Positions 7,151 to 64,000 of a DNA stretch of 64,000 nucleotides are shown here, piece by piece. A program made the translations under genes and the position numbers. Position 1 is the first letter of the stretch; each line of letters starts with the position of its first letter. Source of the DNA: Octopus vulgaris (taxonomy: Eukaryota); contig CATOCA020000008.1 of assembly GCA_951406725.2 (NCBI GenBank), forward strand, positions 62,001 through 126,000, given 5' to 3'. The notes below the pieces were generated by a model, which worked only from the letters and a program-made list of their open reading frames with translations, did no database searches and had not been told where the DNA came from.

Positions 7151-7184
<34 letters not shown>

Positions 7185-7199
7185 TTGTGTGTATGTTTC

Positions 7200-8465: not shown

Positions 8466-8541
<76 letters not shown>

Positions 8542-9146: not shown

Positions 9147-9536
9147 ATGTCAAGTAACTCTAAGATTAAAAATTCTATATACCAGTGTATAATCAGTACT
9201 CGTAATAAAGTACGATTTTACATTGGAAGCACATCGTTAGAGTTATCTAAAAGAATTTCTATCCATTACTCAACATTTAGGGATAGAAATAAACGGAATA
9301 GTACCGGTCTCAGCAAACTGATTTGGGATTTAAAAGACCACAATGAACAATTTCATTTAGAATGGTTGATCCTCTCAATTTCGATACCATATGACAAAGG
9401 CAAGAAATTCTGTCTTCTCTGCAATTCTGAGCTATTTTTCATTATTTTTTCTAAAAATACTCTAGTAAACACGGTTATAGAACGAGCATACAGATGTAAG
9501 CATTGGCAGAAACATACATTTAGTGCATATAAGTAG
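9147..9536 (+). CDS. GIY-YIG endonuclease domain (C-terminal fragment of Penelope-like ORF)
   Basis: SIYQC...FYIGST...RISIH...GLSKLIW...CLLCNSE...LVN...CKH. Confidence 0.8.
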   Translation: MSSNSKIKNSIYQCIISTRNKVRFYIGSTSLELSKRISIHYSTFRDRNKRNSTGLSKLIWDLKDHNEQFHLEWLILSISIPYDKGKKFCLLCNSELFFIIFSKNTLVNTVIERAYRCKHWQKHTFSAYK

Positions 9537-17306: not shown

Positions 17307-17329
17307 TTATCCATACAGACAGACATCCC

Positions 17330-17366
<37 letters not shown>

Positions 17367-17370
<4 letters not shown>

Positions 17371-20120
17371 CCTTAAATCTTTAAAAATGTTTTAGCCCGA
17401 AGGCCGCGGCCATGCTGGGTCACCACCGCTGAGTGAGTTACACTAATATGTGAATCCACCTCTGATACGTGGCACTTGATCAACAAGGGAGCTCGATGCT
17501 GCTGCCCGCATCTGCGTCACCTGTCGTGAGGTAGGTTCATCTGGAACTCCCGACAAGAAGAGATTCAGTTTAGTTTTAAAGAAACCCACATCCACACCAT
17601 GTAAGTCTCTTAGGCATTTAGGGAGGATGTTAAAGAGCTGTGGTCCTCTGAAACCCAAGCTGTTGTAGTATCTGGTCCTGTATTTTGATGGTGATTTTGG
17701 AATCTTTGGCACCATGCAGTGGCGCCCCGTTCTGCGGTTGGGGTAACTTTGAATGCCAAAGTTTGGGACAAGACCCTCCAGGATTTTCCAGATGTATATC
17801 ACCGCATATCTCTCCCGCCTCAGCTCTAGGGAGAAGAGGTTTAATACTTTCAGTCTTTCCCAGTAGCTGATATTTTGCATTGAGACGATCTTCTTTGTGT
17901 AGCTTCTTTGAATTGCTTCGAGTTCTGCTGTTAGTTTTATATTGTGTGGTGACCATAGTTGGGAGCAGTAGTCCAAGCGACTCTGCCTGTGCCTGCTGAT
18001 GGTGTGTCATCCCTGGGAGCATTGCCCTCCAGGCCATTCCACATTGGGGAAGTTAAAGACACCCATGAAGAATACACTGCCGTGTTGTTCAAGGTTGGTG
18101 AGGACTTCTTCTATTTTTGTTAGGCAGTCTTCAAACACGCCTGGGTGATTTGGGGCATCTGGTGGGCGATATGTAGTGCATATGACGATATTCAGTTGTC
18201 TTATGTGTACAATTTGAGTGTCACACACTGAATTTGAGTATGACAACAGGACTTGGGGCGTGAGGTCATCTCGGATGTACATTGCAACTCAAACATGGCT
18301 CCTCCACTTTCTATCTGAGCGTATGACTGCATATTGCGGTATGTGTATTTCTGCATCCCCTATATCGGGTCCAAGATGCGTTTCTGTGAGTGCCATGCAT
18401 ATAGCTTGATTGCATGTCACAAGGTCTCTCAGGAATGAGATTTTCCTTTTACAGTTGCCGCGCAGCAGCCCTCCTACGTTCAGTAGAAATATTTTTGAGG
18501 TATGTGTGTTGGTGTTGGTGTCAGTGGAGGCCATCCTGCATCTGTTGGTGTCAGTGGAGGCCATCCTGCCTTATGTGGTGGTAGTTCCAGCTTTGTGTTT
18601 GTAGCCAGGTCAGCTGCTGAACAATTTTTTGTGCCACGCACAAAAAAGATTGCTATTCAGCTGCTGCCCTTCTCACATCTGGATGAAGCTGGCCATTTCT
18701 TGGGCTACCGCGCACTACATCCGCATATCGTCTTTCAGGAGTGGTCAGTGCGCCCTTTTTCCTTCTTTTATATTTTTCTTTATCTTTTTGTTCTCCCCGA
18801 GGGAGGGATTTTTGTCTTGTGTCCATGCAGTTTTGGTAGGGCTTCTGATGTGTAAAGCGACAGTTCGCACCTTCGACGCCGTACCAGCAGTCCCCCTTCA
18901 GGTAGAATTTGCAGATGTTTCTGCCTTTTCCCTTATAGTTCTTGCTGGGGTTCTTTTGTTTTTTGTGAACAGGGTTTGTTTTAGCTTTAATTTTCTTGTC
19001 TTTTACCTCCTGTTTCCCATCAGTTTTAGGGTGTTTTTCTTTTTTTGCGGTCATCGCACCTCTTTGGTCTCCAGTTGTGTCATTGTTTCCCTTTGTTCTA
19101 GGTTCCTCGGTTTTGTCTTTTGTTGGGTCCTGGATGTTTTCTTTATCCTTTTGGCCTTCACTGATGCAGTCACCTCCTAGGATGATGTCCAGAGTGTCTA
19201 CGTGTCGCCTGATTAGAGCGTATGACCGGAGAAATTCTCGTTTTTTTCGCTGTATCTGGGCGGTGGTCCTTGAAAAATTATTGCTCTTCAACGCCGCTGC
19301 AATGATATTGTTCGGTGAGTCGCCCTCTGCAATCTTCCAGGCGCGGATGAACAGTTGCAACTCTCTCGCAGACAAGTTTCTTGACATTTTCGCCCGAGAT
19401 ACAGTGAGAGTGAAATTTACGAACAGAGAGAGAGAGAGGAAAGATAGGATGGTTGACCTGAGAGGGAGAGGAGAAAGGAGAAAAGCCAGGGGGGATAGAG
19501 AGAGAGAGAGAGATGAGGGGGTTGTCCTGAGAGAAGAGAGAAAGAAAGAATGAATGGCAGGTCAGCAGAGGGAGAGTGAGCGGGATAGGGGTATAGTAAA
19601 GAGAAAGTAAAGGGACAGGGAGGAAAAGAGAGACAAGAGGATGGACCTTAGGGGGAGCAGGGAGAAGAAGGGGAGAGGAAAAAATGGAGAGGGAGAGAGA
19701 GGGCGGGATAGAGGTACCCGAGAGTGAAGTAAAGGGACAGCGAGGGTGGTGTGGGGGAAGGAGACAGAGAGAGGAAAAAGAGACAAGGGGTGAACCTTAG
19801 AGGGAGCAGGGAGAGGAAAAGTAGGAAGAAAAAGGGGAGAGGGAAAGAGGGGGCGCGACAGAGGTGCAAGAGAGTGTAGTAAAGGGACAGGGAGGGTGGT
19901 GTATAGAAAGAAATAAGGGGACAGGAGAAGAGGGAAAGGGGTTTGACTTGTGAAGGAGCGGAGAGAAGAGAGGCAGAGAGAGGGAGGAAGAGTAACAGAG
20001 AAAGAGAAAAAGAGAGAGGGCGGGATATAGATACAAGAGAGAAAGAGTGAAGTAGAGGAACTGAGAGGGGGTGAGATGTGAGAAAGTTGATCTGAGAGAG
20101 AGTTGCAGAAAGAGAAAAGA
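17367..20120 (-). mobile_element. CR1-group LINE with 5' region and ORF1; RT removed by internal deletion
   Basis: 3' end nearly identical to the 2583-5325 copy; APE region (17980-18500) is joined directly to LDYCSQLWSP at ~17980; pyrimidine-rich repeated leader at 19420-20120 (5' boundary uncertain). Confidence 0.85.
18653..19387 (-). CDS. Putative LINE ORF1 with CCCH-like zinc finger
   Basis: 244-aa ORF upstream of the APE region; Lys-rich; CKFYLKGDCWYGVEGANCRFTH; RYADVVR motif. Confidence 0.65.
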   Translation of the reverse strand: MSRNLSARELQLFIRAWKIAEGDSPNNIIAAALKSNNFSRTTAQIQRKKREFLRSYALIRRHVDTLDIILGGDCISEGQKDKENIQDPTKDKTEEPRTKGNNDTTGDQRGAMTAKKEKHPKTDGKQEVKDKKIKAKTNPVHKKQKNPSKNYKGKGRNICKFYLKGDCWYGVEGANCRFTHQKPYQNCMDTRQKSLPRGEQKDKEKYKRRKKGALTTPERRYADVVRGSPRNGQLHPDVRRAAAE

Positions 20121-25529: not shown

Positions 25530-26906
25530 GAGTGTATTTTTACCTTGTTAACAATTAACACGGAAAAATAAATAAATAGTTACCAGGGCAGCAAAAATCT
25601 CACAAGTAAAGGTGTTGTAACTCCTTGTTTATAAAGGTATAAACTTCGTGTTTACGTTGAATATTTGAATAATATGAATAAAAAATGGAGTTAACGCAGG
25701 TGTAAACAAATATTTTTACTTTCGACACGTTTCGAAAATTCCACTGATACTATTCAAAAGAATAAATGGTATAAACAATGCAATCTTCTCTTCGGGAAAG
25801 TGAAAAAAACGAAACTCGTCAATACGACATTTTAGCAAAAAATGATGGATTTGTATAGCGATAGACAGAACGCTATTAATATTGTTTAAAAAAACCTTAT
25901 ATGATATAACGTCATAAGTAGCTAACAGAAAGAGTAGGGATATTAATAGTGAATGTTAAATATAAAGGAAATTAAAGTTTAAATTATATATAATGATAGA
26001 GACTACTTATATGCACTAAATGTATGTTTTTGCCAATGCTTACATCTTATATCTTCTCATAATAACAAACTGTTAAATATTAATACATTTACTAATACTA
26101 ACATTAATTTAGCTAATACCATCCAACCCTCTAGAAATATTAATAACAAGGTTATTGTATCTGAAGTCAATTCCAATAGAATTAAATTTATGTCAAGTAA
26201 CTCTAAGATTAAAAATTCTATATACCAGTGTATAATCAATACTCATATTAAAGTACGATTTTACATTGGAAGCACATCGTTAGAGTTATCTAAAAGAATT
26301 TCTATCCATTACTCAACATTTAGGGATAGAAATAAACGGAATAGTACCGGTCTCAGCAAACTGATTTGGGATTTAAAAGACCACAATGAACAATTTCATT
26401 TAGAATGGTTGATCCTCTCAATTTCGATACCATATGACAAAGGCAAGAAATTCTGTCTTCTCTGCAATTCTGAGCTATTCTTCATTATTTTTTCTAAAAA
26501 TACTCTAGTAAACACGGTTATAGAACGAGCATACAGATGTAAGCATTGGCAGAAACATACATTTAGTGCATATAAGTAGTCTCTATCATTATATATAATT
26601 TAAACTTTAATTTCCTTTATATTTAACATTCACTATTAATATCCCTACTCTTTCTGTTAGCTACTTATGACGTTATATCATATAAGGTTTTTTTTAAACA
26701 ATATTAATAGCGTTCTGTCTATCGCTATACAAATCCATCATTTTTTGCTAAAATGTCGTATTGACGAGTTTCGTTTTTTTCACTTTCCCGAAGAGAAGAT
26801 TGCATTGTTTATACCATTTATTCTTTTGAATAGTATCAGTGGAATTTTCGAAACATGTGCCGAAAGTAAAAATATTTGTTTACACCTGCGTTAACTCCAT
26901 TTTTTA

Positions 26907-46241: not shown

Positions 46242-48496
46242 TCATTTAAAATATTTTAAAGTCTTCAATTTAGCGTGGACACAAACTTGACCTAGTTCGA
46301 TATGGTTATTCAATAGGTTTCTATGTTTTCTATGCTTTAGAATTTCATATGTCTCCATGGAGCATAGTTGGCAACCAACCCTACTATTTTTATACGGAAT
46401 TGCTCTCCTAACTATTTCCCAATTAAGGTTATAATTTTTATTATTATTTTTGAGTTCCCAGATTTTGTTTGAAAGTGTGGTGGTACCAGCTTTATGACGT
46501 AATTTAAAAGTCGAGATGTGATTTCTAACTCTGGCTAAAAAATTAATTGTACATCCAATGTAATAATATTTGTTATTCTCCGTGGATATGGTACATTTAT
46601 AGGTTACATTATTTTCCCCACATAGACCAGGTGCCGGGCATTTTGATTTTATTCTACACTTACACACAGGAGGAACACCTTCAGGCTTTGGATTATTCTT
46701 GGGTAGATGTTTTAGGTTCCTATTATTTTGATTATCATTTCTATAGTTGGTGCTGATATCTAAAGTATTGCTATTATTTCTTGATCCTTCTGTTTCATTA
46801 TTTAGATCTAAAGTCCTACCATGATTTCTTATATTATTGGTAATGTTAATATTATTGCTAGTCTTTTTATCCGACTGCATATTGTTGTTATAGATATCAC
46901 TAATATTTTCATTCTCCTTATTTTCACTATTTTCCCTATTTCTATTATTTCTATTATTAACATTATTACTTCTATTAATATCGGCATTGCTATTATTACT
47001 ATTAATGTTAATGTTATTAGTCATTCTGTGGTTACTAATTTCACCTATGTTTTGATAGTTACTATTGCTGTTTTTATTGTTGGTAGTATTATTACAATTG
47101 CTATTGGTATTCATGCTGATATTATTATTTTTATTTCTATCTTTCCTGGCTAGTTTAATGTTGTTATTATTAATCTTAGCTATTAAAGTAGACATATTTG
47201 GGAGGGTTGAATAAGAAATCCTAACTGTTTTCCTAGAAATAATTCTATGATATCTATGAGAGATAGGGAAATTTTTTTCCAGAATCACTTTGAATTTGTT
47301 CTGTATATCCGATTGTATCGCACAGTTGAAAGGAATATTCAGCCATAATATATCTTTTTTATTAAATTTAGGGTTCGTAGAATTATTACTATTCATCTCA
47401 CCGGAGTTATTGTATTTATTACCATTATTTTTATTTTTATTTGTGTGCATCTTAGGTTTATCTACTTCAATATTATCCGAGTTACCTATGTTCTGGTCAA
47501 TGTTTCTATTTGAATTGTTGGGCCTGTACGCTAGATTAGCGTTTACCGTTAGTTTAATTCTACTTTTATTTCGGGCTTGGTCTTTATTGCTGCTTACGTG
47601 ATTATTGATAACTTCATTATTAGGAATACGTGAGTTCCCCTTATCAACGAATGTAATCTTTTGGTTGTATCCAGCCTTAGTTAACGCCGCATTATAATGC
47701 TCAGAATGGGAGTAAAAATATCCTTATTGGATGATAATTTTGAAATTCTTAATGAAATATTTCTTACTAAAGATTCTATAATATTTGGGGGATGATTTGA
47801 TAATTTATTTACGTAATTCGTGATTTCACCTTCCTTTCTAAATGGGTAATGTAGCTTGGAGTTAAGGTCTAGCGTAATATCTAGGAAATTAACTATTTTA
47901 GTGCCCGGTTCATACGTTATACTGAGGTTGAAATCCCTAAAGAACTTATTAATTTTCTTTCTAATCCTTTCTATAACAGATTTATTATTACTAGGGATAA
48001 CAAACAGAGAATCATCCCTATATAGACCCCCCTGTAATTCTGGGATATCCTTGCTTATGCATTTTAATAGATATGCGCCTACTAGGTTGGTTACCTCAGC
48101 CGAATCACTGGAACCCATTGGTATATCAAAAAAATTAGGTGTATCTGCTCTAGTCCATAATTTATCTTCAAATTCTATAAATGTCTTCCTAGCTAGTAGC
48201 ACAATATTGATTTCTTCTTTAGATATGAGGGAGCGATTCATGGCAAATATTAGTGATTTGTTGAGTAAGATAGGGGAAATGCTAGAGTAATAACTATTAA
48301 TATCGAACTGAATAAAGGACAGACTACTAGTATTAGTTAGAGAGTTAAACCATTTTAGAACTTCATCGGTACTTAGCCATAGGTTTAAGGGGAGAGGAGG
48401 GGTTATTTGGGGTAGAACAGTATCCAAGATAGATTTACTAAGTCGGCCAATGTCCGACTTAGTTGGACAGATCAGCCTTACCGAAGGGTTTTCCAA
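46242..48496 (-). pseudogene. Penelope-like RT plus GIY-YIG polyprotein with one frameshift near 47710
   Basis: QFDINSYY, PMGSSDSAE, GLYRDD, NFLD, SNHPP; the shifted frame continues YNAALTKAGY; then CKCRIKSKCPAPGLC, VTYKC..YYIG, CQLC..E..LN..CVH. Confidence 0.88.
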
Positions 48497-48732
48497 GAAG
48501 GGTTTTCCATTTTTAATCCCTCATCATATCTCTGGAAATTCATATGTGCACTATGGATTAGGTCACCTTCTCTGTGATGCTATTAAGACTTTTTTAAAAT
48601 TCTGTGATAAGACTGTACATCATCTTTAAAGAACTTTAATGAACTTTTGAAATCTGTTTATGTTACTTAATTATCTACATTACTTCATGAGTATAGCCTC
48701 AACCACTAGGATGTCTAGAGAACTCACATGTA

Positions 48733-51028: not shown

Positions 51029-51800
51029 AATGGCAGACCCTCAGCTTACCCGAGAAATGAAGAGGCATGCTGTTATTGTGGTTATAAAGGCTGAACATGA
51101 CGATTTAGAAATATCTTTATTTTTAAAAGTTGTCGGATCTTTTTAAAAGTTGTCTACAAAGTTTGTAAGGAACTAGAGACTGAAGATGGAAGCATATCAC
51201 CAATATCAAAGCGTTTTAAATGCTCTGAAATCATCAGAGCACCCGAATTTATCCAGCAAGTTCAACAGACCATTTGTTACAATCCCAGAAAGTCCATGAG
51301 GTCAATTGCAAAAGATCTTCATGTGTCAGAAGGAACAGTTAGAAATGTTGTCCACGAAGACATCAGGAAAGATCAATTTGTCAGAAAAAGCAAACGAAAA
51401 TCACTCATCACATCTAAAAGGTTCTTAACAAATTGAAAAATCCAGCAGAAGATTTGATTTGGTTTTTCTCAAACGAGAAAAACTTCGACCTGATCAAAAA
51501 AGTTAACAAAAGAAATGACAGACTTTTATGTGCAGACCCTTCTGAAGTTCCATGTGTTATGCATACAAAATTTCCTGCAACTGTCATGGTTTTAGGGGTT
51601 GTCAGTAATGAAGGACATATGATGCCTCCTTTCCACAAGGCCTTAAAGTTAACTTTGCCGACTACATTGAGGCCCTGGAAATAATTGTTAAGTTCTGGAT
51701 AATATGCGATTTCGCGTTGCACTGGTTCTGCGAGTTGCACTGGATAGAAAGTGTATGCAATGGAAGGCCATATCTGTTTCAGTAAGACTCTGCACTATCA
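51029..51800 (+). mobile_element. Tc1/mariner-superfamily transposase relic (possibly DD37D/maT-like)
   Basis: NPRKSMRSIAKDLHVSEGTVRNVVHED HTH, FSNEKNF, TKFPATVMVLGVVSNEG; frameshifted. Confidence 0.7.
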
Positions 51801-52475
51801 CACTCAAGCTAAAACTTGAGAACTACACAAGCTAAAACTTGAGAACTACACAACCAATTCCATTCAAATTTTACACATGCCTTACTTAGGGTCCATGTAG
51901 TTTCATGTTCAACTTCTTGCCTAGAGCGAGCTCATAGCAATATCATATCTTCTCCACTATTTCAGTATTACGTGTTAAAAGTGAAACAAAAACGTTTCTC
52001 TATTTTATGTCAGATACTTTCACTTTAACAATAAAAAAATAATAACAATTGAATTATATGTAGTAAGTAATAATTAAAATCAAACTAAAGTAGAATATAA
52101 TCGTAACAACAAAAGTAAAAATAGCAATTGGTATAAAATTGCATCAATGACTTGAACTTGAATAAGTGGTTGTACATGAATGGGAATAAATTAAAAATAT
52201 AATTAGCGTGCAGAAATGGAATAGTCCAGATGGATAATAAAAAATTAAATTAAAGAAAAGACTATTGTCTATAAAGTATACAATGTAGAGAAAAAGAAGA
52301 TTGAACGGCGGTGTTTTTTGCGCTCTGTAAAATTCGGTTGAAAAGGAAAAAAGAACAAAAAGTGAATTGTGGTTGTTGCGGAATTGGAACGTCGGTTGGT
52401 GCGGTTTCGCGTCGCACTGGTTCTGTGCGTCGCACGTTTTCTGTTCGGGAGGCCGTTTTTCGGTCTGAGGCGACT

Positions 52476-53796
52476 ATGAGCCGCCTCTACCAAACGGATG
52501 AGATGGAAGGGAGAAATTTCTCTGAAAATTCGTCGACATCTGAGGAGGAAAGCACCTACGCAGGTATAACGAAGAAGTCAACAGAAAAAGAGATAGACCT
52601 GGCTAAGTTGACGGACTTCCAGGAGTTCATGAAGGAGGAGGAGAACGGAGAGGTTGAGCTGTTGCCTCTAGCAGGGCGCGGAGACTGGTTCCATCGTAGA
52701 ACCATTAAATATAAAGTATTTATGAATGGAGGTAGAAAAATGGAAGTGATTAACATGGAAGCAATTGAAGAGGCTCTCAAACAGACAGGAGAAGAAATTG
52801 TGTACATGACAAAAGGATTACAATGTGGAACCATAACGGTACAATTTAAAAGTGAGAAAGCAGCCAGGAATGTAGCAGCCAAGGTGGTGAGTACAGAAAA
52901 GATTTACTTGTTCCCCTCGTATTTGAATAGAAGGACCACCAGAATTAGGGTGGTGGGAATACCTCCACACCTAGAGGGCGAATTAATAACGGCTGCGGTT
53001 ATCAAAGGAAATGAAGATAAAGTGGACATCCTCCACGCCATTATGAAATATGAGGGCTGGAGAGGCGTAACAGTGGAGCTGAACGTACAGGCAGAGACCG
53101 AGGTACTGGTGGACCTGACGGAAAGCATCAGACTGGGAGAAGTGATCATGAGAGTGTGGGTGGAGGGCAGGGCTCCACGTTGTTACAAGTGTGGCCTGAG
53201 GGGTCACATAAGAGCCTTCTGCCCTCCCCCCAGGGAAAGAAACGGATTCCGAACCAGAGAGAGAGAAGCAGAAACCAGAAGAGAAGGAAACAGAGGAAGA
53301 GAATACACAGAAATGGAAGGGAGCTGGAAGTAAGAGGAAGAGAAGAATTCATGGAAAAGAAAATAATATGGAACTCCAATCTACCCCAAACCACCCACAC
53401 CCTCTGAGTCCCACCCTATCCATGCAGACATTGAACCCACCCGCTCCCCCCAACAAGAAAACAAAAGAAAAAAAATTAACACATACACAAGAGATTGAAA
53501 TCGAACCCAGGCCGTACATTTGTACTATGACTGAACAGAAAGAAGTTAAAAGTCTAATGGAAGAGTATAAATGGTATGATGTTGGAGAGACTAGGTATGC
53601 TGTGATTGAAAAGAAGAACATAGGTGAGTTTATGGGGAGGTGTGAAAGGGAGAATTGGGAGGTGAAAGATATAAGAATGAGCGATGAATTCGTGGAAGAT
53701 ATGGATGAGTATTTCGGAGTAAGAATGGATATGGAATTTATTCGTATTGACAAAGAACATTCAAGTGACTATGAAAAACAAAGGACAGGTAAGTGA
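52476..53796 (+). pseudogene. Unit 1: chimeric ORF1-like CCHC protein, frameshifted
   Basis: ATG at 52476 (MSRLYQ); type-A N-half and type-B C-half; frameshifts at the C-run near 53230 and near 53390. Confidence 0.8.
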
Positions 53797-54131
53797 TGCT
53801 GACGGACGGGGCCGTTGGTATCACTTTCATTTATCATTTTTCGTTTAACAATTCATGTTCATAAAGTTTAATTATAATGTTCTATGTCCCCATGTTTTGT
53901 AATGTCCCCCTCTTCGTTGGCCCCTTGTGGGTAATAAAAAAAAAAATTCGAACAAGTTTTTTCCGGTCGTTTTTTTTTCGGCTCCTGAAATTCGGCTGAA
54001 AAAAGAACAAAAAGCGTTGTTGTTGTTGTGGAAATTCTGAACGGCGTTGACGCGGTTTCGCGTTTCGCTCGTTCAGCGCGTTACACTTTTTCTGTTTTGG
54101 CGGCCGTTTTCGGTCTGTCAGACAGAAGGAA

Positions 54132-55550
54132 ATGGACTACGAGTCTCTAACAGACTTGTCCACGACGGATGAGGAACTGGAACAGGCAATTGCAGTGAAG
54201 CTGATGGAGGAAAAGGCTGGAGTTTTCGAGTCTTTATCAGACTTGTCTACATCTGAGGAGGAGCTAGAAATAGCAGTGAGGAAAATGGATCAGAAGCTGG
54301 GTTATACCTATGCCGGTGTAACCAAGAAGGCGGAAGAGAAAGGGGTCGACATGGCCAAGTTGCCAAGTTACCAGAAATACATGAAAAAGGAAAGCGGTGA
54401 GGTGGAACTATCACCGACACCCAGGAGAAAAGAATGGTATGATAAGAGGACCATTGTTTACAGGGTGTTCGCAAACGAAAGGAAGAGGGTAGAAGTTGTA
54501 ACCATGGGATGGATAGAGGAAGCCCTGCGAAGAACTGAGGAGGAAATAAATTTTCTGACTCGAGGATCCAAGTACGGGACCGTAGTTGTGCACTTTAAAA
54601 GTGAATCTGTAGCGAGGAAGATGGCAGCGAAGGCGGTGAAGTCGGAAAAGGTAACACTGTTACCTACGTATTTAAACAGGAGGATTACACGAATAAGGGT
54701 GGAGGGAGTGCCACCAAACGTGGAGGCAGAATGGATTGTGGCGGCTGTGATCAGCGGCCACGAGGACGAAGTGGATATTCTCCATGCCTCGGTTAAGTCC
54801 GAGGGCTGGAGAGGCGTAACAGTGGAGCTGAACGTACAGGCAGAGACCGAGGTACTGGTGGACCTGACGGAAAGCATCAGACTGGGAGAAGTGATCATGA
54901 GAGTGTGGGTGGAGGGCAGGGCTCCACGTTGTTACAAGTGTGGCCTGAGGGGTCACATAAGAGCCTTCTGCCCTCCCCCAGGGAAAGAAATGGATCCCGA
55001 ACCAGAGAGAGAGAAGCAGAAACCAGAGGAGAAGGAAACAGAGGAAGAGAATACACAGAAATGGAAGGAAGCTGGAAGTAAGAGGAAGAGAAGAATATGT
55101 GGAAAAAAAGAAAATAATATGGAACTCCAATCTACCCCAAAACCTCCCACACCCTCTGAGTCCCACCCTATCCATGCAGACATTGAACCCACCCGCTCCC
55201 CCCAACAAGAAAACAAAAGAAAAAAAAAGAATACACACACACAAGAGATTGAAATCGAACCCAGGCCGTACATTTGTACTATGACTGAACAGAGGGAAGT
55301 TAAAAGTCTAATGGAAGAGTATAAATGGTATGATGTTGGAGAGACTAGGTATGCTGTGATTGAAAAGAAGAACATAGGTGAGTTTATGGGGAGGTGTGAA
55401 AGGGAGAATTGGGAGGTGAAAGATATAAGAATGAGCGATGAATTCGTGGAAAATATGAATGAGTATTTCGGAGTAAGAATGGATATGGAATTTATTCGTA
55501 TTGGCAAAGAACATTCAAGTGACTATGAAAAACAAAGGACAGGTAAGTGA
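54132..55550 (+). CDS. Unit 2: intact L1/Tx1 ORF1-like zinc-knuckle protein (type B), 472 aa
   Basis: TYAGVTKK, RRM-like region, RIRVEGVPP, VWVEGRAPRCYKCGLRGHIRAFC (CX2CX4HX4C), KRKRR. Confidence 0.85.
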   Translation: MDYESLTDLSTTDEELEQAIAVKLMEEKAGVFESLSDLSTSEEELEIAVRKMDQKLGYTYAGVTKKAEEKGVDMAKLPSYQKYMKKESGEVELSPTPRRKEWYDKRTIVYRVFANERKRVEVVTMGWIEEALRRTEEEINFLTRGSKYGTVVVHFKSESVARKMAAKAVKSEKVTLLPTYLNRRITRIRVEGVPPNVEAEWIVAAVISGHEDEVDILHASVKSEGWRGVTVELNVQAETEVLVDLTESIRLGEVIMRVWVEGRAPRCYKCGLRGHIRAFCPPPGKEMDPEPEREKQKPEEKETEEENTQKWKEAGSKRKRRICGKKENNMELQSTPKPPTPSESHPIHADIEPTRSPQQENKRKKKNTHTQEIEIEPRPYICTMTEQREVKSLMEEYKWYDVGETRYAVIEKKNIGEFMGRCERENWEVKDIRMSDEFVENMNEYFGVRMDMEFIRIGKEHSSDYEKQRTGK

Positions 55551-55766
55551 TGCTGACGGACGGGGCCGTTGGTATCGCTTTCATTTTATCATTTTTTTCG
55601 TTTAACAATACATGTTCATAAAGTTTAATTATAATGTTCTATGTCCCCATGTCTTTTGTTGTCCCCCTCTGTGTCGCCCCTTAGTGGGTAATAAAAAATC
55701 AGCTCGTTCAGCGCGTTACACTTTTTCTGTTTTGGCGGCCGTTTTCGGTCTGTCAGACAGAAGGAA

Positions 55767-57127
55767 ATGGACAACCCCTACCTGATGGGAGATACGGCTG
55801 CAGTTTTTGAGTCTTTAACAGACTTGTCTACGTCTGAGGAGGAGCTAGAAATAGCAGTGAGGAAAATGGATCAGAAGCTGGGTTATACCTATGCCGGTGT
55901 AACCAAGAAGGCGGAAGAGAAAGGGGTCGACATGGCCAAGTTGCCAAGTTACCAGAAATACATGAAAAAGGAAAGCGGTGAGGTGGAACTATCACCGACA
56001 CCCAGGAGAAAAGAATGGTATGATAAGAGGACCATTGTTTACAGGGTGTGCGCAAACGAAAGGAAGAGGGTAGAAGTTGTATCCATGGAATGGATAGAGG
56101 AAGCCCTGCGAAGAACTGAGGAGGAAATAAATTTTCTGACTCGAGGATCCAAGTACGGGACCGTAGTTGTGCACTTTAAAAGTGAATCTGCAGCGAGGAA
56201 GATGGCAGCGAAGGCGGTGAAGTCGGAAAAGGTAACACTGTTACCTACGTATTTAAACAGGAGGATTACACGAATAAGGGTGGAGGGAGTGCCACCAAAC
56301 GTGGAGGCAGAATGGATTGTGGCGGCTGTGATCAGCGGCCACGAGGACGAAGTGGATATTCTCCATGCCTCGGTTAAGTCCGAGGGCTGGAGAGGCGTAA
56401 CAGTGGAGCTGAACGTACAGGCAGAGACCGAGGTACTGGTGGACCTGACGGAAAGCATCAGACTGGGAGAAGTGATCATGAGAGTGTGGGTGGAGGGCAG
56501 GGCTCCACGTTGTTACAAGTGTGGCCTGAGGGGTCACATAAGAGCCTTCTGCCCTCCCCCAGGGAAAGAAATGGATACCGAACCAGAGAGAGAGAAGCAG
56601 AAACCAGAGGAGAAGGAAACAGAGGAAGAGAATACACAGAAATGGAAGGAAGCTGGAAGTAAGAGGAAGAGAAGAATACGTGGAAAAGAAAATAATATGG
56701 AACTCCAATCCACCCCAAAACCACCCACGCCCTCTGAGTCCCACCCTATCCATGCAGACATTGAACCCACCCGCTCCCCCCAACAAGAAAACAAAAGAAA
56801 AAAAAGAATACATACACACAAGAGATTGAAATCGAACCCAGGCCGTACATTTGTACTATGACTGAACAGAAAGAAGTTAAAAGTCTAATGGAAGAGTATA
56901 AATGGTATGATGTTGGAGAGACTAGGTATGCTGTGATTGAAAAGAAGAACATAGGTGAGTTTATGGGGAGGTGTGAAAGGGAGAATTGGGAGGTGAAAGA
57001 TATAAGAATGAGCGATGAATTCGTGGAAAATATGGATGAGTATTTCGGAGTAAGAATGGATATGGAATTTATTCGTATTGGCAAAGAACATTCAAGTGAC
57101 TATGAAAAACAAAGGACAAGTAAGTGA
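55767..57127 (+). pseudogene. Unit 3: type B with alternative N-terminus; frameshift in A-run near 56800
   Basis: ORFs 55767-56861 and 56858-57127 together match unit 2. Confidence 0.8.
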
Positions 57128-57443
57128 TGCTGACGGACGGGGCCGTTGGTATCGCTTTCATTTTATCATTTTTTTCGTTTAACAATTCATGTTCATAAAG
57201 TTTAATTATAATGTTCTATGTCCCCATGTTTTGTTATGTCCGCCATTCTTCGTAGCCCCTTAGTGGGTAATAAAGAAATACGCGGTTTTTTCGGCTCCTG
57301 AAAATTCGGTAAAAAAGAACAAAAAGCGTTGTTGTTGTTGTGGAAATTCTGAACGGCGTTGACGCGGTTTCGCGTTTCGCTCGTTCAGCGCGTTACACTT
57401 TTTCTGTTTTGGCGGCCGTTTTCGGTCTGTCAGACAGAAGGAG

Positions 57444-58859
57444 ATGGACTATGAGTCTCTAACAGACTTGTCCACGACAGATGAGGAACTGGAACAGGCA
57501 ATTGCAGTGAAGCTGATGGAGGAAAAGGCTGGAGTTTTTGAGTCTTTATCAGACTTGCCTATGTCTGAGAAGGAGCTAGAAATGGCAGCAAGGAAATTGG
57601 AAGACAAGCTGAGTTATACCTATGCCGGTGTAACCAAGAAGGCGGAAGAGAAAGGGGTCGACATGGCCAAGTTGCCAAGTTACCAGAAATACATGAAAAA
57701 GGAAAGCGGTGAGGTGGAACTATCACCGACACCCAGGAGAAAAGAATGGTATGATAAGAGGACCATTGTTTACAGGGTGTGCGCAAACGAAAGGAAGAGG
57801 GTAGAAGTTGTATCCATGGAATGGATAGAGGAAGCCCTGCGAAGAACTGAGGAGGAAATAAATTTTCTGACTCGAGGATCCAAGTACGGGACCGTAGTTG
57901 TGCACTTTAAAAGTGAATCTGCAGCGAGGAAGATGGCAGCGAAGGCGGTGAAGTCGGAAAAGGTAACACTGTTACCTACGTATTTAAACAGGAGGATTAC
58001 ACGAATAAGGGTGGAGGGAGTGCCACCAAACGTGGAGGCAGAATGGATTGTGGCGGCTGTGATCAGCGGCCACGAGGACGAAGTGGATATTCTCCATGCC
58101 TCGGTTAAGTCCGAGGGCTGGAGAGGCGTAACAGTGGAGCTGAACGTACAGGCAGAGACCGAGGTACTGGTGGACCTGACGGAAAGCATCAGACTGGGAG
58201 AAGTGATCATGAGAGTGTGGGTGGAGGGCAGGGCTCCACGTTGTTACAAGTGTGGCCTGAGGGGTCACATAAGAGCCTTCTGCCCTCCCCCAGGGAAAGA
58301 AACGGATTCCGAACCAGAGAGAGAGAAGCAGAAACCAGAGGAGAAGGAAACAGAGGAAGAGAATACACAGAAATGGAAGGAAGCTGGAAGTAAGAGGAAG
58401 AGAAGAATTCATGGAAAAGAAAATAATATGGAACTCCAATCTACCCCAAAACCACCCACACCCTCTGAGTCCCACCCTATCCATGCAGACATTGAACCCA
58501 CCCGCTCCCCCCCAACAAGAAAACAAAAGAAAAAAAAGAATACACATACACAAGAGATTGAAATCGAACCCAGGCCGTACATTTGTACTATGACTGAACA
58601 GAAAGAAGTTAAAAGTCTAATGGAAGAGTATAAATGGTATGATGTTGGAGAGACTAGGTATGCTGTGATTGAAAAGAAGAACATAGGTGAGTTTATGGGG
58701 AGGTGTGAAAGGGAGAATTGGGAGGTGAAAGATATAAGAATGAGCGATGAATTCGTGGAAAATATGGATGAGTATTTCGGAGTAAGAATGGATATGGAAT
58801 TTATTCGTATTGACAAAGAACATTCAAGTGACTATGAAAAACAAAGGACAGGTAAGTGA
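57444..58859 (+). CDS. Unit 4: intact ORF1-like zinc-knuckle protein (type B), 471 aa
   Basis: Colinear with unit 2, with no internal stop. Confidence 0.85.
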   Translation: MDYESLTDLSTTDEELEQAIAVKLMEEKAGVFESLSDLPMSEKELEMAARKLEDKLSYTYAGVTKKAEEKGVDMAKLPSYQKYMKKESGEVELSPTPRRKEWYDKRTIVYRVCANERKRVEVVSMEWIEEALRRTEEEINFLTRGSKYGTVVVHFKSESAARKMAAKAVKSEKVTLLPTYLNRRITRIRVEGVPPNVEAEWIVAAVISGHEDEVDILHASVKSEGWRGVTVELNVQAETEVLVDLTESIRLGEVIMRVWVEGRAPRCYKCGLRGHIRAFCPPPGKETDSEPEREKQKPEEKETEEENTQKWKEAGSKRKRRIHGKENNMELQSTPKPPTPSESHPIHADIEPTRSPPTRKQKKKKNTHTQEIEIEPRPYICTMTEQKEVKSLMEEYKWYDVGETRYAVIEKKNIGEFMGRCERENWEVKDIRMSDEFVENMDEYFGVRMDMEFIRIDKEHSSDYEKQRTGK

Positions 58860-59189
58860 TGCTGACGGACGGGGCCGTTGGTATCACTTTCATTTTATCA
58901 TTTTTCGTTTAACAATTCATGTTCATAAAGTTTAATTATAATGTTCTATGTCCCCATGTTTTGTAATGTCCCCCTCTTCGTTGGCCCCTTGTGGGTAATA
59001 AAAAATCACGTGTTTTTTTCGGCTCTGTGTTTTTTGCTCTCTGTGAAATTCGGTAAAAAGAAAAAAGAACAAAAAGTGAATGGTTGTTGGTGTAAAATTT
59101 TGAACATAGTTGATGAGGTTTCGCGTCTCACTGGTTCTGCGCGTTACACTTTTTCGGTTCGGGAGGCCGTTTCTCGGCCGGAGGCGACT

Positions 59190-60517
59190 ATGAGCCGCCT
59201 CCATCAAGCGGAGGAGATGGAAGGGAGAATTTACTCTGAAATTTCGACGGAAGTATCGACATCTGAGGAGGAGTTGGCGGTGAAAAAGATGGAAGGCACC
59301 TACGCAGGTGTAACGAAGAAGTCAACGGAAAAGAGATAGACTTGGCTAAGTTGGCGGGCCTCCAGGAATTTGTGAAGGAGGACGAGAACGGTGAAGTTGA
59401 GCTGCTGCATCCAGTAGGGTGCGGAGACTGGTTCCATCGTAGAACCATTAAATATAAAGTATTTATGAATGGAGGTAGAAAGATGGAAGTAATTAACATG
59501 GAAGCAATTGAAGAGGCTCTTAAGCAGACGGGAGAGGAAATTGTGTACATGACGAAAGGATTACAATACGGAACCATAACGGTGCAATTTAAAAGTGAAA
59601 AAGCAGCCAGGAATGTAGCAGCCAAGGTGGTGAGTACAGAAAAGATTTACTTGTTACCCTCGTATCTGAATAGGCGGACAACTAGAATTAGGTGGAGGGA
59701 ATACCTCCACACCTAGAGGGCGAATTAATAACGGCTGCGGTTATAAAAGGAAATGAAGATAAAGTGGACATCCTCCACGCCATTATGAAGTATGAAGGCG
59801 TGAGAGGTGCCACACTAGTTATGAACGTTCAAACGGAGGCGGATGTTATAGAGAAGATTACGGACAGCATAAAGACTGGAAATATTATTATGAGAGTGTG
59901 GGTGGAGGGTAGGGCGCCCAGGTGCTACAAGTGTGGCCAAAGGGGTCACATAAGAGCCTACTGCCCTCCCCCACCAAAGGAAAAAGAAAAGGAAAGCGTT
60001 GAGGAAGCCTCAGGAGAGGAAGAAAATAAACAGAAACAAACAGAGAAGAAAACGACAGAAGAAGAGGAGATGCAACAAGAGTGGAAAGAAGCGGGAACAA
60101 AGAGAAAAAGAAGGAAAAAGAAAAAACTGTGCGAAGCCCCAACCCACCCCGACACCACCCATACCCTTGGAGTCCCATCCTTCCCCTGCAAACAGTAATT
60201 CCACCCACTCCCCGCCTACAAGAAGAATAAAAACAGACACACAGAGCAAAGAAAGTCCCAAGACCCATTTTTTATTTGTTATACATGGGAGAGACGTACA
60301 AAACGTTAAAAAACTGGTGTTAACCAAGTGGTACGAACACGAAGATTGGAGCTACACGGCTGTGGATGGTGATGATACGGGTATATTGGCGACAAGGTTA
60401 GAGGAAGAGGGTGTGTGTTGGAAGTCAGTGGAAATGAAAGATGAATGGATAGAGAGGGCTAAAAGAAAAACGAATGTTGTGATGGTTAAAACAGGAATAC
60501 TAATTGAAAATGGGTGA
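59190..60517 (+). pseudogene. Unit 5: type A, frameshifted
   Basis: Nearly identical to unit 6 but split over four ORF calls by small indels in homopolymer-like tracts. Confidence 0.8.
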
Positions 60518-60846
60518 AGAAGGACAGATAAGTGATGCTGGCGGATGGGGCCGTCGGTATCGCTCTCATATATCATTTTCATATTCCATTTTGCTCATAT
60601 ATATGTAATTGTGATGTTCCATGTCCCCATGTCTTGTAATGTCCCCCTCTTCGTTGGCCCCTTGTGGGTAATAAAAAATCACGTGTTTTTTTGCTCTCTG
60701 TGAAATTCGGTAAAAAGAAAAAAGAACAAAAAGTGAATGGTTGTTGTTGTAAAATTTTGAACATAGTTGATGCGGTTTCGCGTCTCACTGGTTCTGCGCG
60801 TTACACTTTTTCGGTTCGGGAGGCCGTTTCTCGGCCGGAGGCGACT

Positions 60847-62175
60847 ATGAGCCGCCTCCATCAAGCGGAGGAGATGGAAGGGAGAATTTACTCTGAAATT
60901 TCGACGGAAGTATCGACATCTGAGGAGGAGTTGGCGGTGAAAAAGATGGAAGGCACCTACGCAGGTGTAACGAAGAAGTCAACGGAAAGAGAGATAGACT
61001 TGGCTAAGTTGGCGGGCCTCCAGGAGTTTGTGAAGGAGGACGAGAACGGTGAAGTCGAGCTGCTGCATCCAGTAGGGCGCGGAGACTGGTTCCATCGTAG
61101 AACCATTAAATATAAAGTATTTATGAATGGAGGTAGAAAGATGGAAGTAATCAACATGGAAGCAATTGAAGAGGCTCTCAAGCAGACAGGAGAGGAAATT
61201 GTGTACATGACAAAAGGATTACAATACGGAACGATAACGGTGCAATTTAAAAGCGAAAAAGCAGCCAGGAATGTAGCAGCCAAGGTGGTGAGTACAGAAA
61301 AGATTTACTTGTTACCCTCGTATCTGAATAGGCGGACAACTAGAATTAGGGTGGAGGGAATACCTCCACACCTAGAGGGCGAATTAATAACGGCTGCGGT
61401 TATAAAAGGAAATGAAGATAAAGTGGACATCCTCCACGCCATTATGAAGTATGAAGGCGTGAGAGGTGCCACACTAGTTATGAACGTTCAAGCGGAGGCG
61501 GATGTTATAGAGAGGATTACGGACAGCATAAAAACTGGAAATATTATTATGAGAGTGTGGGTGGAGGGTAGGGCGCCCAGGTGCTACAAGTGTGGCCAAA
61601 GGGGTCACATAAGAGCCTACTGCCCTCCCCCACCAAAGGAAAAAGAAAAGGAAAGCGTTGAGGAAGCCTCGGGAGAGGAAGAAAATAAACAGAAACAAAC
61701 AGAGAAGGAAACGACAGAAGAAGAGGAGATGCAACAAGAGTGGAAAGAAGCGGGAACAAAGAGAAAAAGAAGGAAAAAGAAAAACTGTGCGAAGCCCCAA
61801 CCCACCCCGACACCACCCATACCCTTGGAGTCCCATCCTTCCCCTGCAAACAGTAATTCCACCCACTCCCCGCCTACAAGAAGAATAAAAACAGACACAC
61901 AGAGCAAAGAAAGTCCCAAGACCCATTTTTTATTTGTTATACATAGGAAAGACATACAAAACGTTAAAAAACTGGTGTTAACCAAGTGGTACGAACACGA
62001 AGATTGGAGCTACACGGTTGTGGACAGTGATGATACGGGTATATTGGCGACAAGGTTAGAGGAAGAGGGTGTGTGTTGGAAGTCAGTGAAAATGAAAGAT
62101 GAATGGATAGAGAGGGCTAAAAGAAAAACGAATGTTGTGATAGGTGAAACAGGAATACAAATTGGAAATGGGTGA
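60847..62175 (+). CDS. Unit 6: intact ORF1-like zinc-knuckle protein (type A), 442 aa from ATG
   Basis: MSRLHQ start; TYAGVTKK; RIRVEGIPP; RCYKCGQRGHIRAYC; distinct C-terminal module (KWYEHEDWSY). Confidence 0.85.
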   Translation: MSRLHQAEEMEGRIYSEISTEVSTSEEELAVKKMEGTYAGVTKKSTEREIDLAKLAGLQEFVKEDENGEVELLHPVGRGDWFHRRTIKYKVFMNGGRKMEVINMEAIEEALKQTGEEIVYMTKGLQYGTITVQFKSEKAARNVAAKVVSTEKIYLLPSYLNRRTTRIRVEGIPPHLEGELITAAVIKGNEDKVDILHAIMKYEGVRGATLVMNVQAEADVIERITDSIKTGNIIMRVWVEGRAPRCYKCGQRGHIRAYCPPPPKEKEKESVEEASGEEENKQKQTEKETTEEEEMQQEWKEAGTKRKRRKKKNCAKPQPTPTPPIPLESHPSPANSNSTHSPPTRRIKTDTQSKESPKTHFLFVIHRKDIQNVKKLVLTKWYEHEDWSYTVVDSDDTGILATRLEEEGVCWKSVKMKDEWIERAKRKTNVVIGETGIQIGNG

Positions 62176-62502
62176 AGAAGGACAGACAAGTGATGCTGGC
62201 GGATGGGGCCGTCGGTATCACTCTCATATATCATTTTTCATATTCCATTTTGCTCATATATATGTAATTGTGATGTTCCATGTCCCCATGTCTTGTAATG
62301 TCCCCCTCTTCGTTGGCCCCTTGTGGGTAATAAAAAATCACGTGTTTTTTTCGGCTCCTGAAATTCGGTAAAAAAGAACAAAAAGCGTTGTTGTTGTTGT
62401 GGAAATTCTGAACGGCGTTGACGCGGTTTCGCGTTTCGCTCGTTCAGCGCGTTACACTTTTTCTGTTTTGGCGGCCGTTCTCGGTCTGTCGGACGGAAGG
62501 AG

Positions 62503-63296
62503 GTGGACTATGAGTCTCTGACAGACTTGTCCACGACAGATGAGGAGCTGGAACGGGCAATTGCAGTGAGGCTGATGGAAGAAAGGGCTGGAATTTTCGA
62601 GTCTTTATCAGACCTGCCTGCGTCTGAGAAGGAGCTAGAAATGGCAGCAAGGAATTTGGAGGGCCGGGCTCCACGTTGTTACAAGTGTGGCCTGAGGGGT
62701 CACATAAGAGCCTTCTGCCCTCCCCCAGGGAAAGAAATGGATTCCGAACCAGAGAGAGAGAAGCAGAAACCAGAGGAGAAGGAAACAGAGGAAGAGAATA
62801 CACAGAAATGGAAGGAAGCTGGAAGTAAGAGGAAGAGAAGAATGCGTGGAAAAGAAAATAATATGGAACACCAATCTACCCCAAAACCACCCACACCCTC
62901 TGAGTCCCACCCTATCCATGCAGACATTGAACCCACCCGCTCCCCCCAACAAGAAAACAAAAGAAAAAAAAAGAATACACACACAGACAAGAGATTGAAG
63001 TCGATATCAGGCCGTACATTTGTACTATGACTGAACAGAAAGAAGTTAAATGTCTAATGGAAGAGTATAAATGGTATGAAGTCGGTGAGACTAGGTATGC
63101 TGTGATTGAAAAGAAGAACATAGGTGAGTTTATGGTGAGGTGTGAAAGGGAGAATTGGGAGGTGAAAGATATAAGAATGAGCGATGAATTCGTGGAAAAT
63201 ATGGATGAGTATTTCGGAGTAAGAATGGATATGGAATTTATTCGTATTGGCAAAGAACATTCAAGGGACGATGAAAAACAAAGGACAGGTAAGTGA
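62503..63296 (+). pseudogene. Unit 7: type B with in-frame loss of the RRM-like region
   Basis: Start codon reads GTG; MAARNL is joined to EGRAPRC; later frameshift near 62980. Confidence 0.8.
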
Positions 63297-63642
63297 TGCT
63301 GACGGATGGGGCCGTTGGTATCACTTTCATTTTCTCATTTTTTCGTTTAACAATTCATTTTCCATAAAGTTTAATTATAAATGTTTTATGTCCCCATGTC
63401 TTTTGGTGTCCACTTCTGTGTCGCCCCTAGTGGGTAATAAAGAAATACAATGTAGAGAAAAAGAAGATTGAACGGCGGTGTTTTTTGCGCTCTGTAAAAT
63501 TCGGTTGAAAAGGAAAAAAGAACAAAAAGTGAATTGTGGTTGTTGCGGAATTGGAACGTCGGTTGGTGCGGTTTCGCGTCGCACTGGTTCTGTGCGTCGC
63601 ACGTTTTCTGTTCGGGAGGCCGTTTTTCGGTCTGAGGCGACT

Positions 63643-64000
63643 ATGAGCCGCCTCTACCAAACGGATGAGATGGAAGGAGAAATTTCTCTGAAAATTCGTC
63701 GACATCTGAGGAGGAGTTGGCGGTGAAAAAAATGGAAAGCACCTACGCAGGTATAACGAAGAAGTCAACAGAAAAAGAGATAGACCTGGCTAAGTTGACG
63801 GACTTCCAGGAGTTCATGAAGGAGGAGGAGAACGGAGAGGTTGAGCTGTTGCCTCTAGCAGGGCGCGGAGACTGGTTCCATCGTAGAACCATTAAATATA
63901 AAGTATTTATGAATGGAGGTAGAAAAATGGAAGTGATTAACATGGAAGCAATTGAAGAGGCTCTCAAACAGACAGGAGAAGAAATTGTGTACATGACAAA
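63643..64000 (+). pseudogene. Unit 8: type A 5' part, same leader as unit 1
   Basis: MSRLYQTDEMEG then a 1-bp deletion; truncated by the window end. Confidence 0.75.

Follow-up and report, generated by a model that had tools for sequence, protein, structure and literature searches.

Units of the array

The window, a 64,000-nt stretch of Octopus vulgaris contig CATOCA020000008.1, closes with eight ORF1-only units that lie head to tail on the same strand (Table 1), seven of them complete and the eighth interrupted by the window end, in agreement with the at least eight contiguous same-strand units proposed in the initial annotation. The complete units all close with a common tail and AATAAA (53931, 55688, 57267, 58995, 60668, 62327 and 63434), and each contains exactly one CX2CX4HX4C knuckle. 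Three reading frames are intact, as had been claimed, and the unit leaders are indeed CpG-rich, with an observed/expected ratio of 1.6–2.1 in 7/7 versus 0.69 in window positions 1–52000. The conserved 3' UTR hairpin is paired in 98% of cells across 51 distinct sequences, with a few compensatory changes, and the terminal 62 nt of the tail yielded no conserved structure.

Table 1. Positions of the array units and of the surrounding host repeat (window coordinates unless stated)
Feature	Position	Strand	Remarks
Host repeat, 5' half	51809..52306	+	non-autonomous Helitron-like, ~1.1 kb; own 5' terminus missing in this copy
TATA-like box in host repeat	52270..52276	+	LINE/type-D landing site 39 nt downstream, an alternative one 29 nt downstream
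Unit 1	52307..53947	+	chimera: 5' ~750 nt type B2, remainder type A
Unit 2, type A	53948..55701	+	intact ORF 54132-55550 (472 aa)
3' UTR hairpin, example	55547..55578	+	13-15 bp, conserved, preceded by a splice-donor-like motif; further copies at 53793, 57124, 58856, 60532, 62190, 63293
3' tail, example	55640..55700	+	~45-60 nt, AATAAA and a few bases at end; one per unit
Unit 3, type A	55702..57279	+	leader 5'-truncated; 1-nt homopolymer indel near 56776 breaks frame
Unit 4, type A	57280..59007	+	intact ORF 57444-58859 (471 aa)
Unit 5, type B1	59008..60680	+	three 1-nt indels
Unit 6, type B1	60681..62339	+	intact ORF 60847-62175 (442 aa)
Unit 7, type A	62340..63445	+	internal deletion of ~620 nt at ~62657; RRM region gone
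Host-sequence copy, 28 nt	63446..63473	+	repeats 52279-52306; long target duplication
Unit 8, type B2	63474..64000	+	extends beyond window
Host repeat, 3' half	contig ~133,876-134,350		beyond window

Within 52279–64000 we found no microsatellite, only weak 17–22-nt doublets, and this part of the earlier description stands; its companion, that foreign insertions are absent, does not, as 28 nt of host sequence recur in front of unit 8. The first copy of these 28 nt belongs to the host Helitron, so that the array does not begin at 52279 as annotated. The two protein types that had been distinguished become three in the window (A, B1 and B2), with unit 1 a B2/A chimera and unit 7 a deleted copy, and the units differ from one another by 2–40%. 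The chimeric head of unit 1 is a near copy (0.3–0.5%) of the head of unit 8, and the reading frame of unit 1 is broken 3' of the knuckle. The nearest copy of unit 2 lies on another contig, only 0.12% away.

The array continues beyond the window for two more units, 9 and 10, which are older, A-to-G hypermutated and of type A, and then reaches a two-ORF L1/Tx1-type LINE, giving the order host 5' part, ORF1-only units, LINE, host 3' part. This LINE, 4.2 kb past the window end, encodes APE and RT, is internally deleted, and has an ORF1 homologous to that of the units. The description of the locus as RT-less is therefore correct for the units, with no ORF2 homology in the array segments of the window, and incorrect for the array.

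The unit protein and the partner LINE

The protein of unit 6 has an acidic N-terminus, two predicted RRMs, a CCHC knuckle, a charged linker and an α/β C-terminal domain of ~85 aa. The structure check suggested in the initial annotation supports this reading, as the unit protein is predicted to fold as two RRMs plus a knuckle: the model has a pLDDT of 93, tandem-RRM proteins are among its matches (best E 1.2e-5), it aligns with the La RRM (Z 9.4, rmsd 2.4, 82 aligned), and a ZCCHC3-like atlas cluster is matched at 0.90. The knuckle scores slightly below the Pfam cut-off. Type I ORF1 proteins, the class of Khazina and Weichenrieder, are defined, as cited in PMC5203782, by at least one RRM plus a CCHC knuckle, and the modelled unit ORF1 falls within this class, as a predicted RNA-binding protein. 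A word-based protein search with the unit protein gave no match, and Pfam and PDB sequence searches gave weak knuckle matches only; a HMMER library search returned 361 relatives. The C-terminal domain, although confidently modelled (mean pLDDT 84), has no Foldseek match at E ≤0.001 and no atlas match, so that its fold is unclassified and not necessarily new.

The core of the unit ORF1 is 33–36% identical to that of the LINE ORF1. The ORF1-only families are deeply diverged (28–60% identical) and form a long lineage with 100/100 support, with no two-ORF member among those sampled. Comparisons between B subfamilies give a dN/dS of 0.08–0.20, and that of A with A2 gives 0.11; one hyperedited A copy yielded values as high as 0.56. 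The long-term selection previously proposed is thus borne out by values of ~0.1–0.2 between subfamilies, and is best read as acting on an active transposon lineage rather than on a host gene.

In the LINE family to which the partner belongs, ORF2 is 1131 aa long, contains APE, RT and zinc-binding domains, is intact in many young copies and matches human L1 ORF2p with an E of 7e-65; the 136 RT copies scored are 95–100% identical, many within frames of ~1132 aa. Judged by its APE, RT and C-terminal zinc motif, this is an L1/Tx1-type ORF2, and among the 120 matches listed one relative carries the name TX1 (38% identity). A target preference in Tx1 elements is taken, in the excerpt of PMC4494074, as more than 20% of flanks being of one kind, and the partner LINE has 14/20 such flanks. 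The units and the partner LINE have a landing site in common, and an alignment of nine unit types with three LINE copies reveals a 3' tail common to all unit types and two-ORF LINEs. The 3' UTR hairpin of the LINE is no more stable than shuffled sequences (z -0.26). Since the A/B tail is as close to the tail of L122, an older LINE family, as to that of the young LINE, or closer, the ORF2 donor for A/B is not pinned to the young LINE. ORF2 homology is absent from 220/237 segments, the remaining 17 being LINEs. With an ORF1 homologue, no ORF2 and a tail common with the partner, the units would qualify by sequence as ORF1-only non-LTR elements.

Landing site and growth of the stacks

The whole stack occupies one position within the Helitron-like repeat. 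Non-autonomous Helitrons have a 5' TC, a 3' CTAG with a subterminal hairpin, and insert between A and T without target duplication. These end features were seen in most of 19 other host copies, whereas the 5' end is absent from the window copy. A Helitron flank was seen directly at 42/60 loci picked by unit matches (42/52 of the closer matches versus 0/8 of the most distant) and at 14/20 loci picked by LINE RT matches, 9 of these 14 having ORF1-only neighbours. Exact empty sites numbered 284 and exact filled 3' junctions 90, with 0 in controls, and the same stacks are present at dozens of other places in the genome. Rfam gave no match at nine flank loci, and by this search the target does not correspond to any known RNA gene.

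The genome-wide copy count that had been suggested gave hundreds of copies over most chromosomes, among them 150 or more of type A at ≥96% and ~125 close B copies; frames of at least 420 aa are kept in 17/52 A copies and 75/123 B1/B2 copies. Sense-strand A>G clusters with an ADAR-like neighbour bias occur in 13/231 segments, while the same rule applied to T>C, G>A or C>T yields 0. As these ADAR-type clusters sit in genomic copies, they point to an RNA intermediate. Exact flanking duplications of at least 10 nt are found at 118/231 segments against a null of 1, a number that homogeneous arrays push upwards; most B2 units have a short target deletion instead of a duplication, and most junctions within the window match over 5–8 nt only. 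The dispersed copies thus carry the hallmarks of retrotransposition, with target duplications imperfect in about half of the segments. Expression was checked in eight sequencing runs, seven of them unlabelled or DNA, in which the unit signal tracked copy number or was indistinguishable from DNA, and one labelled RNA run from another organism, which gave one contig; overall the signal was DNA-like or coverage of the units was scant. Some gene models splice into units, a warning of annotation artefacts.

These data make it very probable that the units are ORF1-only non-LTR retrotransposons, which likely borrow the endonuclease and RT of a young L1/Tx1-type LINE and likely insert singly at a fixed position in a Helitron-like repeat, the head-to-tail stack likely growing at its 5' end. 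Of the two readings originally offered, this is the one upheld, that of a non-autonomous retroelement landing beside its own kind, given the RRM/knuckle fold, the tail and target of the partner LINE, purifying selection and editing marks. Target-derived sequence at junctions, the independence of units from their flanks, the rise in divergence from 5' to 3' and the position of ORF1-only units ahead of the LINE in 53/56 locus-level pairs also speak for this model. In the proposed mechanism the LINE ORF2 would bind the common 3' tail in trans and prime reverse transcription at a nick, and each insertion would duplicate ~12 nt of the target or of the previous unit's head, leaving a new landing site ahead of the latest arrival; some arrays would later expand locally. 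ORF1 would be retained because each family coats its own RNA, and it may help to choose the site, given that the landing point of A/B units lies ~10 nt upstream of the one used by the LINE and type D.

Whole stacks could instead arise in single events, by RT jumping from LINE RNA to ORF1-only RNAs or by copying of multi-unit read-through RNAs. Such events would fit the polarity of the loci, as the two-ORF LINE follows ORF1-only units in 53/56 locus-level pairs, the travel of junction tags between loci (a C2 tag lies inside the C3 array) and the occurrence of chimeric units. We nevertheless consider them unlikely, because target-derived sequence with locus-private variants lies between units (in L132, L135 and L136 all junctions of a locus repeat its own form of the 12-nt target), adjacent units differ in age and editing, and many stacks are without any LINE. 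Within this array the distance to the nearest copy rises from 0.1–0.7% in units 2–6 to 2–5% in units 7–10 (rho 0.94), a gradient that depends on the relatives sampled and includes edited sites in units 9–10.

Growth by local tandem duplication, in which one or two insertions are followed by unequal exchange between their target duplications, does operate elsewhere: over all arrays pooled, the nearest copy of 96/164 units lies in the unit's own array, so local expansion matters in other arrays, among them C5 (15/15), C2 (14/14) and C8 (11/13). The shared head of units 1 and 8 is of this kind too. For the present locus, however, this explanation is largely refuted and very unlikely, as 7/8 testable units are closer to copies at another locus (median 0.6% versus 2.1%) and three unit types are intermixed. 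Units less than 1.5% apart sit in 3' flanks ~6% apart (Spearman 0.07–0.24), and near-identical units must, given this difference between flanks, have inserted independently.

The other original reading, a co-opted RNA-binding gene family that was amplified, or else a silencing (small-RNA) locus acting on LINEs, would account for purifying selection and for the long lineage free of sampled two-ORF members, but is remoter still in view of the copy number across most chromosomes, the many broken frames, and ends and junctions of transposon type; hundreds of copies at many independent sites with target-derived junctions led us to drop it. A domesticated ORF1 gene of the L1TD1 kind would be one or a few fixed loci without transposon ends, and was ruled out on the same observations. 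We give scarcely any credence to the units being cargo caught once by a Helitron and spread by rolling-circle copying: many B2-bearing loci do have identical junctions, but the cargo is far younger than, and uncorrelated with, its flanks, which refutes this as the main route, at least five cargo types with many junction forms occupy the same site, and units with their own target duplications exist outside the Helitron. An assembly artefact is a negligible prospect, for although the array contig is short (142 kb) and unplaced, and several frame breaks are 1-nt homopolymer indels, the divergence between units, the identical architecture on chromosome-size contigs, the failure of two flank probes to find a near-identical or allelic duplicate of the contig, and the presence of unit sequence in independent runs all speak against it.

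What fixes the site can be stated less firmly. We lean towards a sequence or structure preference of the endonuclease alone, and tentatively entertain a role for a TATA-box promoter complex 30–40 nt upstream. A TATA lies at -26 to -36 in 5/12 non-Helitron sites (background ≤0.055, P ~3e-4, in an interval chosen post hoc), the 12 being what remained of 35 loci with 16 readable duplications after four with a repeat target or array-internal position were dropped, and including one site that lacks upstream sequence and was scored as a miss. This spacing of ~30 nt hints at promoter-guided targeting. It is doubtful, though conceivable, that the units form a guild of ancient ORF1-only families whose ORF1 is a targeting module steering the borrowed LINE ORF2 to a TATA-promoter start site, newcomers sitting right behind the promoter and displacing earlier arrivals downstream. 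If so, each stack would read as a dated series of entries, in order, in a contest for one promoter, and some entries would also bear the ADAR edits of the germline RNA.

Relation to known elements

The component parts are known individually from HAL1, TRE5-A.2, HeT-A and SINEU/Tx1-Mar, which we compare here as excerpts of the cited papers describe them. TRE5-A.2 of Dictyostelium is an ORF2-less derivative of TRE5-A.1 that is likewise non-autonomous, position-specific and tandem-forming, is mobilised in trans, and has an ORF1 through which the target is chosen and which binds TBP in vitro; it differs in its target ~47 bp upstream of Pol III genes, in being a single derivative near its parent and in its unrelated ORF1 (PMC5391098). 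The octopus units instead comprise several diverged families that target a transposon and form stacks as long as ~23 units. SINEU-3/Tx1-Mar of crocodilians and Tx1L in Tx1D of Xenopus have a site inside a non-autonomous DNA transposon common to a Tx1-clade LINE and its dependent, tandem copies enclose the target duplication and hitchhiking is excluded; their dependents, however, are non-coding SINEs, their targets Mariner or piggyBac, and long polar multi-family stacks are not described in the excerpt of PMC4494074. HeT-A and other ORF1-only telomeric Jockey elements, ~40% of the telomeric families in Drosophila, similarly persist, spawn new ORF1-only lineages, depend on an ORF2 from another family and lie in mixed head-to-tail arrays, but are of the Jockey clade, at chromosome ends and without an internal target (PMC13534243). 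The octopus arrays, checked for telomeric position, are interstitial on many contigs with host sequence on both sides, and the partner ORF2 is L1/Tx1-like. Mammalian HAL1 (half-L1) is a non-autonomous L1 derivative with ORF1p only and several origins, yet has a type II ORF1 and is dispersed and old, with neither fixed target nor stacking described in the excerpt (PMC5753468). R1 double insertions keep the target duplication at tandem junctions and expand locally later, but involve single autonomous families and mostly dimers (PMC5932611). For the combination of these parts we found no precedent in the literature searched; Repbase-type libraries and the supplement of PMC13282606, outside that search, may list the families.

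The edited copies are evidence, from the genome itself, that transposon RNA edited by ADAR undergoes reverse transcription in the germline of the octopus. The LINE, type D and types A/B would draw on a single enzyme source, yet LINE/type D and A/B land ~10 nt apart; what ORF1 may contribute to target choice bears on L1/Tx1 elements and on tools for site-specific insertion. Mixed head-to-tail arrays of long-lived, protein-coding ORF1-only parasites extend beyond fly telomeres and Dictyostelium tRNA genes, and in this animal genome they flourish at an interstitial site.

The array and its host repeat

A run of at least eight same-strand ORF1-only units with CpG-rich leaders, AATAAA ends and three intact reading frames had been described in the initial annotation; this observation is real and is explained. 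Eight units of ~1.7 kb each can be counted; seven finish in the same AATAAA-bearing tail, and the last is cut off by the window end. The leaders are CpG-rich, and the intact ORFs number three (472, 471 and 442 aa). Unit 1 is chimeric; the 5' end of unit 3 is truncated and its frame, like that of unit 5, is broken by 1-nt indels; unit 7 has an internal deletion. Near-identical protein fragments are assigned to Octopus vulgaris by their sources, which makes this an octopus genome. Past the window follow two more units, an internally deleted two-ORF LINE and then ~500 nt of another repeat, the same one that occupies the 490 nt 5' of the array. Joined, the halves of this host repeat form a 1.1–1.2-kb element with a 5' TC, a 3' hairpin and CTAG, lying between A and T, which are Helitron-like ends. 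Among 19 other top copies of its left half, 15 are empty, two hold ORF1-only units and two a LINE-type 5' end, all at the same spot. The genome holds 284 exact empty sites and 90 exact filled 3' junctions; controls gave none of either, and the search patterns were unequal in strictness. Other elements of the window are listed in the table; the 302-aa frame may represent the 5' portion of a further element.

Features of the window and tandem arrays of a sister LINE elsewhere in the genome
Feature	Position	Strand	Remarks
Array of ORF1-only units	52279–64000		all units on one strand
Leader-like stretch	51704–51741		38 nt, 87% like a unit leader; upstream of host repeat
Splice-donor-like motifs	53785, 55539, 58848, 63285		consensus-like 5' donor at ORF end of A/B2 units
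Presumed Penelope-like element	46242–48520	-	frames taken to be RT-like and GIY-YIG-like; Asn-rich insert
Related fragments of that element	7105–9536, 25983–26579
Unrelated LINE copy	10079–12040	+	RT frames up to 653 aa in these LINE copies
Unrelated LINE copies	3331–5076, 15804–18052		as above
302-aa frame	18653–19561	-	CCCH-like motif
Purine-rich tandem repeat	19620–19965		150-nt repeat, adjoins the 302-aa frame
Sister LINE arrays	C27:32.95–32.99 Mb, C30:10.43–10.45 Mb, C22:14.22–14.25 Mb, C58		other contigs of the same genome

Copies, junctions and choice of site

A genome-wide search for copies and adjoining ORF2 sequences, as the initial annotation had proposed, revealed many copies (at least 150 of type A at 96% or more, about 125 close copies of type B), with the two-ORF LINE an optional member of the stacks, 3' of the units. 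In 11 arrays and at 60 other loci the host 5' half comes first, then ORF1-only units, then optionally the LINE, and last the host 3' half; additional ORF1-only types C and D and older A and B subfamilies occupy the same arrays. Host flank was found at 42 of 60 loci (42/52 closer matches, 0/8 most distant); when 20 loci were picked by LINE RT, 14 had host flank, nine had ORF1-only neighbours and four lay in other targets. The LINE is 5.25 kb long with an ORF2 of 1131 aa containing APE/RT, also stacks on itself, and is a young family, judging by 136 scored RT copies at 95–100%. The full frame is kept in only about half of the young unit copies. Older B-type subfamilies lie repeatedly in other repeats (loci L126, L176, L189; L179, L180, L178), which suggests earlier target choices within one lineage. 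Tandem arrays of a sister two-ORF LINE (88% to the young family) repeat every 5.3 kb and occupy another target.

Tails, junctions, flanks and editing marks speak for retrotransposition into a fixed site. The last ~45 nt are common to all unit types and LINEs. LINE and D junctions carry about 12 nt of target sequence. In A and B1 the usual duplication is of the head of the unit they land in front of, some units bearing longer host tags (e.g. 63446–63473, a copy of host sequence), and B2 units mostly show short target loss. Exact matches of at least 10 nt were present in 118 of 231 segments and in 1 in the control; the window's own junctions match poorly. Locus-private target variants recur at every junction of three loci (L132, L135 and L136).

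Promoter targeting was examined as a candidate for what fixes the site. Of 12 independent non-Helitron sites, 5 have a TATA motif 26–36 nt upstream of the duplication (5/9 ORF1-only sites and 0/3 LINE sites; at one LINE site the distance is 39). The background is at most 0.055 and P about 3e-4, the 26–36-nt range having been set once the data had been inspected. In the Helitron host the motif is 39 nt upstream of the LINE site and 29 nt upstream of an alternative one. In TRE5-A of Dictyostelium the site is picked by ORF1, which binds TBP (PMC5391098). Behind a splice-donor-like motif the 3' UTR holds a conserved hairpin (51 distinct sequences, 98% paired; z -3.4 and -3.9) that may have a role in RNA recognition or in control of the 3' end. 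The same donor motif stands in the LINE directly before the ORF2 start codon, at the ORF1/ORF2 boundary (L071 and 15 other copies).

Sense-strand A-to-G changes, 15–65 per segment, mark 13 of 231 segments, including two that belong to this array immediately beyond the window end; under the same cluster rule none of the 231 qualified for three control changes. G is under-represented 5' of the changed sites (0.04 vs 0.23) and over-represented 3' of them (0.20 vs 0.10–0.16), a bias that matches ADAR and implies reverse transcription of edited RNA. Such clusters occur in single units with unedited neighbours (C38 ~127,140–130,220, L075, L115, L119, L120 and others).

Growth of the array

For 7 of 8 testable units the nearest copy is at another locus, the loci differing from unit to unit, and its distance rises along the array from 0.1–0.7% for units 2–6 to 2.1, 2.9, 4.4 and 4.8% for units 7–10 (rho 0.94). 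Across loci, 53 of 56 pairs have ORF1-only units 5' of the LINE, and 29 of 33 have A 5' of B2. The best-fitting account is that units arrived one after another at the 5' end. A purely sequential process with no local duplication is, however, disfavoured by the head of unit 1, a local copy of that of unit 8, by the 96 of 164 units whose closest copy is an array mate when all arrays are pooled, and by some nearly homogeneous arrays. Carriage of units by the Helitron is ruled out, since units <1.5% apart have 3' flanks about 6% apart and the two divergences are uncorrelated.

Known systems and the unit protein

HAL1 (PMC5753468) and TRE5-A.2 are ORF1-only dependent elements, and in Drosophila about 40% of the telomeric families are ORF1-only (PMC13534243). 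Tandems are also known from Tx1 LINEs and the SINEs that depend on them, which share a DNA transposon as target (PMC4494074), and from double insertions that later expanded (PMC5932611). A recent octopus repeat annotation names active L1-Tx1 families, and its main text mentions neither ORF1 nor nesting (PMC13282606). Each component feature is known; for the combination, no earlier description was found in the openly searchable literature.

The RRM and knuckle layout noticed initially was borne out by structure prediction, which models the protein core (pLDDT 93) as a pair of RRMs plus a CCHC knuckle, the same layout as the type I ORF1 (RRM and CCHC knuckle) tied to Tx1 elements (PMC5203782). 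The 85-aa C-terminal domain has a confident predicted fold with no match in structure and atlas searches. B1 and B2 share an RRM core and differ in their C-terminal modules, that of B2 being A-like, which amounts to an exchange of modules between families. In octopus gene models P0004–P0011 the unit C-terminal module is joined to host exons, e.g. of a CFAP65-like gene, either by real splicing or as an annotation artefact.

A and B cores are 59–60% identical to each other and 33–36% identical to the LINE ORF1. The tree unites A and B in a single clade (100/100), set off by a long stem from the two-ORF ORF1s that were sampled; C and D are placed elsewhere, and deeper branches are weakly supported. 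Long-term selection on the protein, proposed earlier from its diverged types, gains support between subfamilies (dN/dS 0.08–0.20 among B subfamilies, 0.11 for A vs A2, an A subfamily). For A vs B dS is saturated; among young copies within A or B1 the ratio is 0.55–0.62. Because of the low subfamily dN/dS and the long-stem A/B clade, the ORF1-only state appears to be old, and the protein has been maintained.
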